Virus record (IMG/VR): IMGVR_UViG_2802429224_000006
Coordinates: 1 to 20,498 of that record
From: a virus
Taxonomy: Duplodnaviria; Heunggongvirae; Uroviricota; Caudoviricetes
Reading direction: 5' to 3' (one strand)
Length of the DNA: 20,498 nt
Within the stretch, counting starts at the first letter, position 1. Every line of letters begins with the position of its first letter. Shown piece by piece: positions 12,801-18,800 of this stretch. A program made the position numbers.

Positions 12801-15800
12801 TCAGGAGGCGAAAGGGCGCGAGCAACTGGCGCAAATGCTGGCAGGTCAACCTGGAATGACGGTTGAGCAGGCGAAAATGTTGCTGGCTGCTGCGCCGGTT
12901 GCCGGTACTGACAGCACGGGTGATCAGATTATGGCGCTGCCGGAAGCAAAGGGGCGTGAGCAACTGGCACAGATGCTGGCAGGTCAACCGGGGATGACGG
13001 TGGCGCAGGCGAAAGCGTTTCTGGCGGCAGCCCCTGCTGCCGGTGCTGCAGGCACAGGCGATCAGATTATGGCGTTACCAGAAGCAAAAGGGCGTGAACA
13101 ACTCGCGCAGGCGCTGGCTGAACAGCCGGGAATGACCGTTGACCAGGCCAAAACGTTACTGGCGGCGGCACCGGTTGCGGGTTCTGCAAGTGTCGGCGAG
13201 CAGATTATGGCGCTGCCGGAGGCGAAAGGGCGCGAACAACTTGCACAGGCACTGACAGAACAGCCAGGAATGACGGTGGCGCAGGCGAAAACGCTGCTGG
13301 CAGCCGCGCCGGCGGCATCGCAACCGTCACAGGAAACTCTTTTTGATCGCTTTATGGCACAGCATGCTGCCAGTGCGGTTTCCGGTGGCGGAACTGCCGG
13401 GCACGGAGAAGAAGATCTGCTGATGAGTATGCCGTAAGCGATATCCGGAATTCAGATAAATCAGGAGACTGAAAAATGATTAAAACCACCACGGAAAAGC
13501 GCGCGGATGTGCATATTTTTGCCGGAAGCGATCCGGCGCATACTGCAACCGCCACCAGTGGTATCAGTGCTGCCACGCCTGCACTGACGCCACTGATGCT
13601 GGATGACGCCACCGGCAAACTGGTGGCATGGGATGGTCAGAAAGCCGGAACGGCAGTGGGCGTGCTGGCTCTGGCGCTTGCCGGAACAGAACCCACACTG
13701 ACGTACTACAAAAGCGGTACGTTTGCCACTGAGTCGCTGGTCTGGCCTGACTCTGTGGATGCGGTGAAAAAAGCCAACGCATTTGTGGGAAGTGCCATCA
13801 GCCACGCCTGATGGTGAAGTGATTGACTGAAAAAACGGGTCGCGATGCGGCCCGTTTGTGTTTCTGAAGGAAAATAAATTATGGGGTTATTTACCACGCG
13901 TCAGTTACTCGGGTACACCGAGCAGAAAGTGAAATTTCGTGCGCTGTTTCTGGAGCTGTTCTTTCGTCGCACGATCACTTTCCATACTCAGGAAGTCATG
14001 CTGGATAAAATTACCGGCAAAACACCGGTTGCGGCGTATGTGTCTCCGGTGGTGTCAGGCAAAGTGCTGCGCAGCCGTGGTGGTGAAACCCGCGTGTTAC
14101 GTCCCGGTTATGTAAAACCCAAACACCGCTTTGATTATCAGCAGGCAGTGGAACGTCTTCCGGGAGAGGATCCGGCCCGTCTTAATGACCCGGCCTACCG
14201 CCGCCTGCGTATTCTGACGGACAACCTGAAGCAGGAAGAGCAGGCGATTGTGCAGGTGGAAGAAATGCAGGCGGTCAGTGCCGTTCTGCAGGGTAAGTAC
14301 ACCATGAGCGGGGAACAGTTTGAGACGGTGGAAGTGGATTTTGGGCGCTCTGCCACCAATAACATTACTCAGGCTGGCGGCAACAGATGGTCACAGCAGA
14401 ATGCTGACACCTTTGATCCAACGCACGATCTGGATGCGTACTGCGATTTTGCCTCCGGGACCATCAATATCGCGATTATGGATGGCACGGTCTGGCGTAT
14501 GCTGAATGGCTTTAAGCTTTTCCGTGAAAAACTGGATACCCGTCGTGGTTCAAAATCGGAACTGGAAACCGCGCTGAAAGACCTGGGCTCCGTAGTCTCT
14601 TTTAAGGGTTATTACGGTGATCTGGCTATTGTGGTGGCGAAAACCGCTTACGTCGATGAAAACGGGGATGAACAGCGTTATCTGCCGGAAGGCACACTGA
14701 TTCTGGGGAACACTCAGGCGGAAGGCGTCCGTTGTTATGGTGCCATTCAGGATAATCAGGCACTGAGTGAAGGGATCACCTCTGCGATTCGTTATCCGAA
14801 ACACTGGTTAGAGGTGGGGGACCCGGGGTGCGAATATACCATGACGCAGTCTGCGCCGTTGATGGTGCTGCCGGATCCGGATGCGTTTGTGGTGGTTCAG
14901 GTGAAATAAGACGGGGCGGGATATTCCCGCCTTTTTCTTTAGCGCACGGGAGAGATTTGATGACAAAAGAGCAGATGACTGAACGTTTGCAGGAACTGGC
15001 AGTGATTCTGGGGCGTGAAGCAGATATTTCAGGTTCAAAAGCCGATCTTGAGCAGCGCCTGGCGGAATGGGAAGAGGAGGCCGCCGGATTCGATGGGGAG
15101 GAGACAGGGAAGGAAGAGGTGGGCAACGATGCATCCGGCGACGGAATGCATTCTGAGCGGGGACTCGCCCGGGTGCGTATGCTGAAAACGGCGCATATGC
15201 CAGCCTGTGATGCTGTAACGGGAAAAATGTTGATGTTTGCCCGGGCCTCCAGTGTTGTGCTGGTTAATGAAGCCGCAGTTCCTGCGTTGCTGGCGGACGG
15301 TCTGGCAGAAAAAATCCGGGAGTGATGATGTTAGATAATCTGTTCGATCAGGCCATGAGTGATGCGGATGACATCATCCTGGATACGATGGGGACGGAAA
15401 TCAGCATATATCCGGGCGGCACGGAAAGAAGAATCCGTGCCGTTTTTGATGCCCCGGCAGAAAACACCGGGATGAACACTGGCAGCGGCGAAATTCGTAA
15501 TACTGCGCCAGTTTTATTTACCCGGAGCGCATGGGTTGCCGGACTGAAAAAATATGACAGGGTCATGATCCACGGTGAACCCTATCAGGTAGTCGATCCC
15601 GGCTGGGATGAGTCGGGTACTGCGGGGCATGGTGTGATTACCATTACTCTCGCGCGGGGAGAACCCGGAAGAAGTACGCCTGCCGCCCCTGTCAGACCGA
15701 GTAAACGTTATGGCAGTCAGAGAGCATGAACGAAGCAGTGCCCGGCAGCGACGGCTGGCACGAAACCTCGTCGTCGATATTGATGAAGATGAGGTGCTGA

Positions 15801-18800
15801 AAATTATCGCTAAACTGGGTGGTTCAAAAAGCCAGATCCGTAAAGCCTGGGGCGTGGCGCTGAAAAGAGCCGCGTCCGCACTGCGGATGAAGGCCATGGC
15901 AGAGTTTAAAAAACAGGTTGCGCCACGCAGTCAGAAAATGATCAAAAACCGTGTCTTGAATGCTTTTATCATTCGTCGAAATGGCGATGAGTTTGATGAG
16001 GCGAAGGTATGGTTTGGCCTGAACGCCATCAAAGTGCGTGACCTGCGCGGACGTATTACCGGCGGAAGGCGTGGCGAACGCCATCAGTTGCGTGATGAAC
16101 GGGGACGTTTTGCACCGGCCACACGCCGAAGACAGGCGAGGGAGATTCGTTTTAAACCTGCCGGGGAGGCAATACCGGTCACCACCTGGTCAGGTGAAGA
16201 GGCTTTCATTAATGAATTTGAGTCTGAAAACCGGAGCGGACGCATTTCACGACGTAAGACGGTCCTGGTCCGGCAGGCATCCGGACGACGAAGGGTACGC
16301 GAAGCAGAAATTGATATTTATGAAGCCATGCTGAACCGTATAGAGGATTTTGTTTTCCCTGATGCGGAAGCACTGATCCTGAAAAATTTTGAGCATGAAC
16401 TGAAATTCCGGGTATTTAAGGGGCTGGAGTGATGGAACCATTGATGATGGGAGCCTGGCATCAGGCGGTGATTGACAGTCTGAAACAAATTCCCTGGGTG
16501 GAAGATGCCGATGAGTACCCGGAAAAAGTGACGCAACTGGTGACGCCTGCCGTGTTTGTGGATGTACCGGGCTGGGACAAGGCTCAGTTTGCTGACGGGC
16601 AGATGCGGGTCACGCTGAAATGCGATCTGTTTGTGGTGACTGACAGGTCCGGGAAGACGGAGAACGTGTCAAAACCGCAGATATTTGCCCGCTGTCTGGC
16701 AATGGATTTATCTGACTGGATTGAGGGAGCCACGTTCGGGCTGGATAACGTTGATCCGGCGGTTTTTATTGATGCTGAGGTGGATACCTTCGACCGGCTG
16801 CTGGACGACTACATCGTTTTCCGGGTCTCTTTTGAACAGGACATTCCGGCCGGCGAAGATCCGTTTGCGGTTCCGGCAGGTGCGCCGTTACGGGAAGTCT
16901 GGCTGGGGAAAGTACCGGAAACCGGTAAAAAGCATGTGCAGGATTATCGTCTTATCTGGAAAGCGGAGGGCACCGGCGATGAGTCTGGCGGATGAAGTGG
17001 CAGAGTTACGCCGCAGGGTGGCGGATATGGTCCGTCGCGGCGTGGTGGAAGAGGTGATCCCGGGTAGCCCTGTGATGGTCCGGGTGGATATCGGGGATGT
17101 GCTTTCACCGCCGTTGCCCTGGATTCAGGTGCAGTCCGGGCGTTACATGCAGGTCAGTAATTACCCGGCTCCCGGAGATGCGGTAACGGTGATATCGGAG
17201 GCGGGTGATCTGCGTAATGGTCGGGTGTATCCGGGGGCCAACATTGACGCGATTCCGGTACCGGCGGGCAGTGAACACGAGCATGTTATTTTGTTTGATA
17301 CCGGAACGGAGATCCGTTACGACCGTCAGGCTAATGCCCTGTTCATCACGCTGGCTGAAGGCGGCAGCTATAAAATTACCGGCAGGGGAACCCTGGACGG
17401 TCCGGTGGAAATCACGGACACCCTGACTGTGCAGGGAAAAACGAAGATTAATGCCGATACGCAGGTTCTGGGCAATATCGGTGCCTCACAGGAGATCACC
17501 GACAAAACCGGTAGCATGAGTAAAATTCGCGAAATTTATAATACTCATGATCACCCCGGCGACAGCGGGGGAACCACCCGTAAACCTAACCAGGAAATGT
17601 GAACGCCGCACCGGCGTTTTTTTTCGGAAAAATTTCATGATTGGTATTGATTCCGCCACCGGAAGATATCTGCACGGTAACGAACATCTGCGTCAGTCCG
17701 TCACCGATATTCTGTCAACACCGGTCGGCAGCCGGGTCCTGCTCAGGGAATACGGCAGCAGGCTGTTCAGTCTGCTTGATAACCCGCAGGATGATTTCAC
17801 ACGGGTGAGGATTGTCCGTGAAACGGCAACCGCCCTCGAACTCTGGGAACCCCGCCTGACCCTTCGCCGGGTGGAGGTGACGTGGACCGGAGAAGGCTGC
17901 GCCTGGCTGACGCTTGTCGGGGTGAATAACGAAACACAGGAAACGATTCGACTCGAGGAGATAAAAATTGGCAACGTCTCAGGCAATCATTGATCTGTCC
18001 GCGATACCGGTACCGGATGCGGTGGAGGTGCCGGACACTGCTGTGCTGGTCACTCAGATAGTGGCGAAGTATCAGGAGCTGGACACGTTGTTTTCGGCCC
18101 TGGTGGAATCCGATCCGGCGTATAAATGGGCAGAGGCACTGGCTTTTCGCGTGGCGCTGATGCGCCAGCAGGTCAATGATGCTGTCCGGGGTGTACTGCT
18201 TGCCAGCGCCCGGAGGAACGACCTGGATCAGATTGGTGCGAATTTTCAGGTGCAACGTCTGGTGATTACCCCGGCAGATGACAGCACCATCCCGCCCACG
18301 CCTGCGGTGTATGAAGATGATGATGCTTTTCGCGAACGTATCCAGTTGTCATGGGCACGACTCAGCACCGCTGGCGCGAAAAATGCGTATCACTATTTTG
18401 CACAAAGTGCTGATCCTGATGTGCTGGATGTGAAGGCTTACGGGCCGGAAACGCATTCGCAGGAAGGCCGGGTTTTTCTTTATGTGTTATCCCGCTCCGG
18501 AAATGGCACTGCACCGCAACCCCTGCTGGATAAGGTGGCAGCATCAGTCAGTGATGATGAAACCCGTCCCCTGACGGATTTTGTCAGTGTCCGGGCGGCA
18601 GAAATTATTCCCTACGATGTGGTGGCGGATATTCATATTCCCTACGGACTGGATGGTGAACTGGTTATGGCAAATGCCCGCAAGGCGCTGCAGTCATACA
18701 CTGACAGCGTCCACCGGATTGGCTCGGTGGCATCCCGTTCTGGCATGGATGGTGCCCTTCACCAGACCGGGGTGATTACGGTGAATCTGACCTCTCCGGG

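Follow-up and report, generated by a model that had tools for sequence, protein, structure and literature searches.

Functions have been described for the tail completion proteins (TCPs) gpZ of lambda, gp16.1 of SPP1 and gp51 of 80alpha (PMC11661146, PMC11099176, PMC11784142), the last of which is located in the neck lumen and touches the tape measure protein (TMP) and DNA (PMC11661146). Terminators of myophages and of contractile injection systems are reported to differ from those of siphophages by an extended, sheath-binding C-terminus (PMC11915804), and gpR, the P2 terminator, is described as homologous to tailocin caps (bioRxiv 10.64898/2026.09.14.750843). Here we analysed a stretch of viral DNA of 20,498 nucleotides (hereafter the window; positions 1 to 20,498 of IMG/VR virus record IMGVR_UViG_2802429224_000006, Caudoviricetes) in which lambda-like packaging and head genes are followed by P2-like baseplate genes, and in particular the two genes located between these modules. 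They encode proteins of 240 and 187 residues (open reading frames ORF240, 15710..16432, and ORF187, 16432..16995, both on the + strand), which a preliminary description of the window had taken for special adaptors marking the recombination joint of the mosaic.

We favour another explanation, to which we assign a probability of roughly 85%: both ORFs are the standard tail-completion pair of a known hybrid lineage, and the joint lies upstream of them, in the FI linker at about 15080. ORF240 would belong to the lambda gpZ family, as a divergent TCP (Neck1) whose Arg-rich loop is enlarged, and ORF187 would be a terminator of both tube and sheath, of the PA0615 collar family, with a conserved C-terminal extension of about 40 residues. 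What was observed directly are the identities, the gene order and synteny, the co-inheritance of the genes and the position of the joint.

Relationship of ORF240 to lambda gpZ

Direct scans with ORF240 gave no Pfam match at E <= 0.1 and none in NCBIfam. The protein matches PHROG 27 ('tail completion or Neck1 protein') over its whole length with E 8.3e-26. A profile search of 1.84 billion representative proteins retrieved only 185 relatives, most of which are 180-195 aa long, match in two stretches and are devoid of the Arg-rich segment of ORF240 (around residues 117-150). Distant members connect the family to Minor_tail_Z (PF06763). ORF240 itself does not reach the gathering score of this Pfam family and only 2 of its 24 close relatives match it (best E 7e-4). 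Among nine distant members scanned, seven match PF06763, three of them above the gathering threshold (P0059, P0120 and P0160 with 34, 32 and 27.5 bits, respectively, for a cut-off of 23.9). A Wolbachia WO protein annotated as 'minor tail protein Z' scored 46.6 bits.

Homology to gpZ itself is detectable with profiles. In hhalign, a 43-sequence alignment of the ORF240 family aligned with lambda gpZ over 139 columns (Prob 95.4%, E 1.9e-8), the basic insert of ORF240 falling at the RRRRRKKGQR stretch of gpZ. The link came exclusively from this alignment, which includes distant members; shallow alignments of close relatives of ORF240 or ORF187 gave no hhalign signal against lambda Z and U or P2 R and S. 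The family profile also recovered, with E 2e-7, the true Z gene from an E. coli prophage with a lambda tail. Gene position agrees with the assignment, since ORF240 lies between an FII-type gene and a terminator gene, as do its counterparts in all related loci. Lambda gpZ occupies the same slot, after FII and before the terminator gene, and carries an Arg-rich loop at the same place. ORF240 is longer (240 aa vs 192 aa) and belongs to a contractile instead of a flexible tail, and in the enterobacterial ORF240 subfamily the basic loop is 30-40 residues larger than that of lambda gpZ. Taken together, these comparisons identify ORF240 as a predicted remote member of the lambda gpZ tail-completion family.

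No similarity of ORF240 to P2 gpS was detected by hhalign (probabilities of the window proteins against P2 gpR and gpS were <= 0.4%), and neither ORF gave a tblastn match to P2. We also considered ORF240 as a 'virion morphogenesis' protein of the P2 gpS or Mu gpG type and rejected this on its dissimilarity to gpS, which alone was compared. PDB sequence searches with ORF240 profiles returned spurious matches only. The TCP fold, known from 80alpha gp51, has a long helix at either terminus with a loop or beta region between them; the fold match of ORF240 to this neck-located TCP is weak.

Relationship of ORF187 to the R2 pyocin collar

ORF187 gave no Pfam or NCBIfam match in direct scans, and matched PHROG 1072 (E 9e-50), a family which is labelled 'unknown function' and is a terminator family. 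Its core has the gpU/terminator fold. The top 34 matches of ORF187 are terminators, collars and caps, save for 2gjv and 6tba, which carry no functional name, and one or two more named differently (tail adaptor gp53 and Listeria Antigen B). Identity to PA0615 is about 18% over the structural alignment. A profile of close ORF187 relatives found PA0615 at E 3.3e-4; with Vibrio, Wolbachia and metagenomic homologues included, the match rose to E 3.1e-20 and covered the full length (profile 2-170 vs residues 3-164 of the 171 of PA0615), which places ORF187 in the PA0615 subfamily at the sequence level. We assign ORF187 as a putative tail terminator, the closest solved relative of which is the R2 pyocin collar PA0615 (PDB 6u5f).

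Sequence similarity of ORF187 to lambda gpU is faint (Prob 13%) and to P2 gpR not detectable by hhalign. Nevertheless, lambda gpU, Mu gp37 and P2 gpR have the same core fold and probably the same role. As P2 gpR is a terminator homologous to tailocin caps, ORF187 would be its functional counterpart. ORF187 exceeds gpU (131 aa) by about 55 residues and differs from it by its C-terminal extension of about 40 residues. In this region, which aligns with the C-terminus of PA0615, P162, G165 and Y172 are nearly invariant. What we say of contacts between PA0615 and the sheath draws on the Mu and P2 papers cited here and on general knowledge.

Both ORFs are real genes, with best homologues at E 1e-135 (ORF240) and 1e-101 (ORF187), and both show translational coupling with the adjacent genes. 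The overlap between FII and ORF240 is 20 nt, the stop codon of ORF240 and the start codon of ORF187 are fused in a TGATG with AAGGGG 9 nt upstream, and ORF187 and V overlap by 17 nt, V being preceded by GGAGG. ORF187 ends at 16995 and may start at ATG 16432 (187 aa) or at GTG 16429 (188 aa). P4 of the 188-aa form is invariant in homologues, which favours an upstream start over the RefSeq start at 16444. RefSeq labels both proteins 'hypothetical protein'.

These results bear on the preliminary description in two ways. Its placement of two proteins of 240 and 187 residues in the tail-completion position, acting at the head-tail interface, holds, as does its remark that both are larger than P2 R and S (gpR 155 aa, gpS 150 aa). 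Its statements that lambda Z and U are absent and that the two proteins match nothing recognizable do not, given the remote gpZ homology of ORF240 and the gpU/terminator fold of ORF187.

Position of the module joint

A search with 7600-20498 of the window led to a lambdoid prophage of E. coli KS-NP019 (NZ_AP024123, 360-380 kb). Its DNA matches 7615-15078 in one piece at 90.2% identity, the blastn alignment ending at 15078, and it encodes counterparts of the window's Nu1, A, W, B, C, D and E with 90-99% identity (gpW 99%, gpE 97%). Downstream, it carries lambda FII, Z, U, V, G, T, H, M, L, K, I and J. The KS-NP019 prophage is therefore like the window in the head module and unlike it from the FI linker onward, where a classical lambda tail follows.

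Sliding nucleotide identity between both sequences drops at about 15080 from 0.76-1.0 to 0.44-0.54, the random level. This point lies within FI, the gene of the DNA-packaging chaperone (14960..15325, + strand; PF14000, E 7.5e-13), of which the N-terminal ~40 residues are conserved between the two prophages whereas the C-terminal part is unrelated. In the following gene, which encodes the FII-type head-tail joining protein or stopper Hc1 (15325..15729, + strand; PF05354 E 1.2e-13, phrog_82 E 9e-30, NF049848), only 24 identities over 75 aligned residues are shared with the KS-NP019 FII. The module joint is thus located at ~15078-15095, within FI, after the conserved N-terminal ~40 residues. A terminator-like hairpin is present at 14913-14933 (+ strand), directly behind E and ahead of FI, which places it about 150 bases upstream of the joint.

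ORF240 and ORF187 lie at least 630 bases from the joint, inside the tail-side module, and do not mark it as had been proposed. GC content is flat (0.53-0.57 across ~8500-20000), without a compositional break at 15710-17640. The collapse of identity at ~15080 indicates that the C-terminus of FI, FII, ORF240, ORF187 and the whole tail were exchanged as one unit. As judged by the sequences on both sides, the interface between gpW and FII appears to tolerate two very different FII proteins.

The source prophage and the distribution of the gene block

The window represents the late region of a prophage of E. coli which combines lambda-type cos-packaging and head genes with a contractile tail of the P2/R-pyocin type. 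Between 15000 and 19500 it shares 99.1% identity with a prophage of E. coli 52F4, and this stretch is found in 82 of 5426 complete E. coli genomes. Downstream, the 52F4 prophage continues with H, G (fibre assembly protein), sheath, tube, a tail assembly protein, tape measure, U, X and D, which make up a complete P2-type contractile tail. The contractile tail anticipated in the preliminary description is borne out by these genes. That description had opposed its adaptors to clear homologues of lambda Z/U or P2 R/S followed by a non-contractile lambda-type tail; homology to lambda Z and U does exist, although remote rather than clear, and the tail is not of the non-contractile type.

The hybrid lineage to which this prophage belongs is already known and widespread. 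A megablast search of 14800-18000 against phage records gave no match, and a full-text literature search joining a lambda-like head with a P2-like tail found no paper. The block formed by FII, the gpZ-like gene, the terminator gene and V (baseplate spike of the P2 gpV type, 16979..17602, + strand; TIGR01644 phage_P2_V, 76.5 bits) is also present in Vibrio phage Valp1, Citrobacter phage Chris1, Hafnia phage yong2, Wolbachia phage WO and in metagenome and genome contigs encoding distant ORF240 relatives. When loci were retrieved with PA0615 (query sequence taken from the HMMER alignment), 41 of the 44 carried the block, nearly all of them from Pseudomonas, and these 41 have in addition an upstream GpA-type terminase and portal. 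In related loci V is always directly downstream of the terminator gene.

Vibrio phage Vb_VaM_Valp1 has the same block together with sheath and tube genes, and its genes match those of the window one by one in the same order, at 29-49% identity. Chris1 and yong2 similarly possess the block and sheath and tube genes. They differ from the window by a head of the HK97 type with a protease-capsid fusion, found also in several contigs, and by the insertion of the genes from sheath through D between V and W. Since Chris1, yong2 and these contigs retain the block with an HK97-type head, it is not tied to the lambda C-D-E head. A consensus scan of the window detected a strong GC hairpin with a downstream T run, resembling a terminator, at 17601-17619 (+ strand) between V and W, two genes which in P2 belong to a single operon. 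The hairpin coincides with the site where the sheath-through-D genes stand in Chris1 and yong2, which suggests that V is linked to the neck genes and that W-J-I-H constitute a separately movable block.

Wolbachia phage WO (WOVitA1, KX522565) displays A-W-B-C-D-E, a small hypothetical gene, a 'putative minor tail protein Z', a hypothetical gene which is the ORF187 homologue, V, W, J and I, and a published module list of WO shows the same gene order (PMC7691483). Unlike in the window, a PAAR gene follows V, the gpZ-like protein has 170 aa and no long Arg-rich insert, identities are only 22-31% and the host is an intracellular alphaproteobacterium.

We conclude that the arrangement FII, gpZ-like, terminator, V is old and widespread. 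Its conservation from Enterobacterales to Vibrio, Pseudomonas and Wolbachia WO, together with the presence of gpW and FII as adaptor and stopper, contradicts the view of the two proteins as adaptors special to this mosaic. A recent foreign insertion of ORF240 and ORF187 was also considered and rejected on account of the flat GC content, the translational coupling and the conservation of the block across phyla.

Comparison with R-pyocins

The R-pyocin locus of Pseudomonas paraeruginosa, the collar of which is 80% identical to PA0615, has the order collar-V-W-J-I. In this one locus the gpZ-like gene, terminase and portal are all absent. The R-pyocin thus differs from the window phage in being headless, with neither FII nor a gpZ-like gene, while the phage collar must also dock a head. 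The lack of a gpZ-like gene in a headless particle supports the notion that gpZ-type proteins serve the joining of head and DNA and not the construction of the tail.

The pyocin collar is 44-49% identical to its counterparts in three Pseudomonas prophages of the hybrid lineage (those with terminase GpA, gpZ and collar) and has no P2 match; no P2, 186 or phiCTX record was among the matches listed for PA0615 homologues. Similarly, pyocin V is 53-56% identical to the Pseudomonas hybrid prophages vs 38% to P2, and W 71-77% vs 40%. The opposite is seen with J, which is nearer to P2 (58% vs 44-49%). These values hint that part of the R-pyocin may derive from the hybrid lineage.

Proposed assembly and alternative explanations

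On the head side, gpW serves as adaptor and FII as stopper, just as in lambda. By analogy with homologues, which are our source for stoichiometry, contacts and the place of ORF240 in the virion, the tail would assemble on the baseplate around the TMP and an ORF187 hexamer would cap the last tube ring, its C-terminal arm clamping the last sheath ring. ORF240 would join the tail last, within the lumen of the neck on the TMP's N-termini, as proposed from lambda gpZ, SPP1 gp16.1 and 80alpha gp51. The filled head, closed by gpW and FII, would dock, with the FII hexamer meeting the upper face of ORF187, and the cos DNA end would descend to ORF240, which would receive or hold it after joining. The Arg-rich loop of ORF240 is a likely DNA- or TMP-facing element and could plausibly contact DNA.

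Several points weigh against this explanation. ORF240 has no direct match in Pfam or NCBIfam, and is connected to gpZ transitively, through profiles. Where TCPs reside is unsettled, gpZ being unseen in lambda reconstructions and T5 p143 being placed at the tail tip (PMC11784142). The last 42 residues of ORF187 are modelled at a predicted local distance difference test (pLDDT) value below 50, so that sheath binding is a prediction from conservation and homologues only. Moreover, the prophage could be defective.

ORF240 could also be a gpZ homologue which acts outside the neck, either as a monomer elsewhere on the tail, as T5 p143, perhaps close to the baseplate, or as a non-structural assembly factor. 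The T5 protein was located laterally at the tail tip, and most reconstructions of necks show no TCP (PMC11784142); the weak fold match to the 80alpha TCP and the tight linkage of ORF240 to the spike gene V in every locus would also fit. However, the authors of the T5 study doubt that p143 belongs among the other TCPs (PMC11784142), gp51 of 80alpha contacts TMP and DNA in the neck lumen (PMC11661146), and the R-pyocin, with collar and V and no gpZ-like gene, associates this protein with heads and DNA and not with the baseplate. We regard a position outside the neck as unlikely. The idea of novel, lineage-specific adaptors which bridge a siphovirus-type connector to a contractile tail on the recombination joint draws on the place of both ORFs between the last lambda-like and the first P2-like recognizable gene, on their 'hypothetical' status in RefSeq without Pfam or NCBIfam match, and on the lack of similarity to P2 R or S. 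Yet both belong to known families, the same pair accompanies an HK97-like protease-capsid fusion head in Chris1, yong2 and metagenome contigs, and the joint with the lambda-tailed sibling prophage is at ~15080 in FI, without a GC break, which makes this idea very improbable. Least probable of all is a cap made of two proteins, with ORF240 as sheath terminator and ORF187 as tube terminator, as T4 gp15 and gp3 or, in a former proposal, P2 gpS and gpR. Older P2 genetics indeed gave tube and sheath termination to R and S (PMC11784142), and the window has two genes in the R/S position, each larger than R and S. ORF240, however, is related to the gpZ of a sheathless phage and shows no gpS similarity, PA0615 alone caps both tube and sheath of a pyocin whose locus has no ORF240 homologue, and the necks of Mu and P2 show a single terminator ring (PMC11915804; bioRxiv 10.64898/2026.09.14.750843).

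Implications of a probable tail-completion pair

If ORF240 and ORF187 form the tail-completion pair, our understanding of these necks is not overturned: both proteins are new members of known families. The main gain is in annotation, as two 'hypothetical' genes of RefSeq become nameable in the 82 E. coli genomes, as gpZ-family TCP and PA0615-family terminator, and so do their counterparts in Wolbachia WO, several isolated myoviruses and many Pseudomonas prophages. Heads which are 90% identical and carry either a lambda tail or a contractile tail amount to a natural experiment, with the FI linker as exchange point and gpW-FII as the tolerant interface. Such an exchange point could guide the engineering of chimeric phages.

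More speculatively, the C-terminus of FI, FII, the gpZ-type TCP and the PA0615-type terminator may constitute a portable 'neck kit', by which one lambda-type head (gpW and portal 97-99% identical) could mount a flexible lambda tail or a contractile tail, by way of recombination in the unstructured FI linker. We put this forward as a tentative proposal, which could well prove wrong, and two corollaries depend on it. The ancestor of R-type pyocins, at least as regards collar, V and W, may be the hybrid lineage and not a P2/phiCTX-like phage, in which case everything upstream of the collar was lost, the TCP included. The enlarged Arg-rich loop of the enterobacterial TCPs might similarly be an adaptation to the handling of the cos DNA end in a contractile tail.

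Gene order in the window

All genes of the two modules are on the + strand. The lambda-type packaging and head module (7614..14909), recognized by its identity to lambda and by the RefSeq gene names in the 52F4 prophage, consists of Nu1 (7614-8162), A (8092-10050), the head gene W (10054-10263), B (10260-11831), C (S49 peptidase/scaffold, 11821-13437), D (13476-13811) and E (major capsid, 13881-14909). Together with FI and FII these homologues are collinear with lambda. Amino-acid identities to lambda by tblastn are 53% for Nu1, 66% for A, 50% for W, 62% for B, 54% for D, 59% for E and 34% for FII; C is 65% identical in its N-terminal part and 45% in the remainder. The range of 34-66% covers only the eight genes with a tblastn match. 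FI gave no tblastn match to lambda, and when aligned shares 35 of 116 residues.

Downstream of V, the P2 order is followed by the baseplate wedge genes W (17637-17993, PF04965), J (17968-18882, PF04865) and I (18875-19465, PF09684), and by the tail fibre gene H (19462..20498), cut by the window end, which was identified by a tail-collar fibre N-terminal domain (PF12571, E 2.7e-14) and by the RefSeq annotation in 52F4. Identities to P2 are 27% for V, 39% for W, 40% for J and 37% for I. These lambda and P2 identities and domains confirm the mosaic of lambda-like packaging and head genes with P2-type V, W, J, I and H recognized in the preliminary description.

Other features of the window

Gene C contains a 138-nt tandem repeat of 3.7 copies with 78% match (12804-13312, + strand). 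It encodes a 46-aa unit (…ALPEAKGREQLAQ.LA.QPGMTV.QAK.LLAAAP…) within the scaffold-like C-terminal portion of this S49 protease gene.

An ORF of 267 aa that separates the lysis cassette from Nu1 (6472-7275, + strand) gave a full-length match to the K88/F4 fimbrial subunit (PF02432, E 2e-46). This is an unusual moron for its position, which in the 52F4 prophage is occupied by a pseudogene only.

Upstream of the lysis genes, 529-3368 (+ strand) is occupied by two ORFs of low GC content (0.40-0.45), which encode a 546-aa N6 DNA methylase (PF02384, HsdM-like) and a 379-aa type I specificity subunit (PF01420, HsdS-like). HsdR was not seen in the window. As judged by these domains, the two ORFs look like a cargo pair of methyltransferase and specificity subunit. 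Sibling prophages carry a different 'DNA-methyltransferase' at this site. In the 52F4 prophage, an IS21-family element (ISEc12 istA/istB) is found upstream of the lysis genes (7753-10055 of that locus), where the window has other cargo, which indicates that this prophage region is variable.

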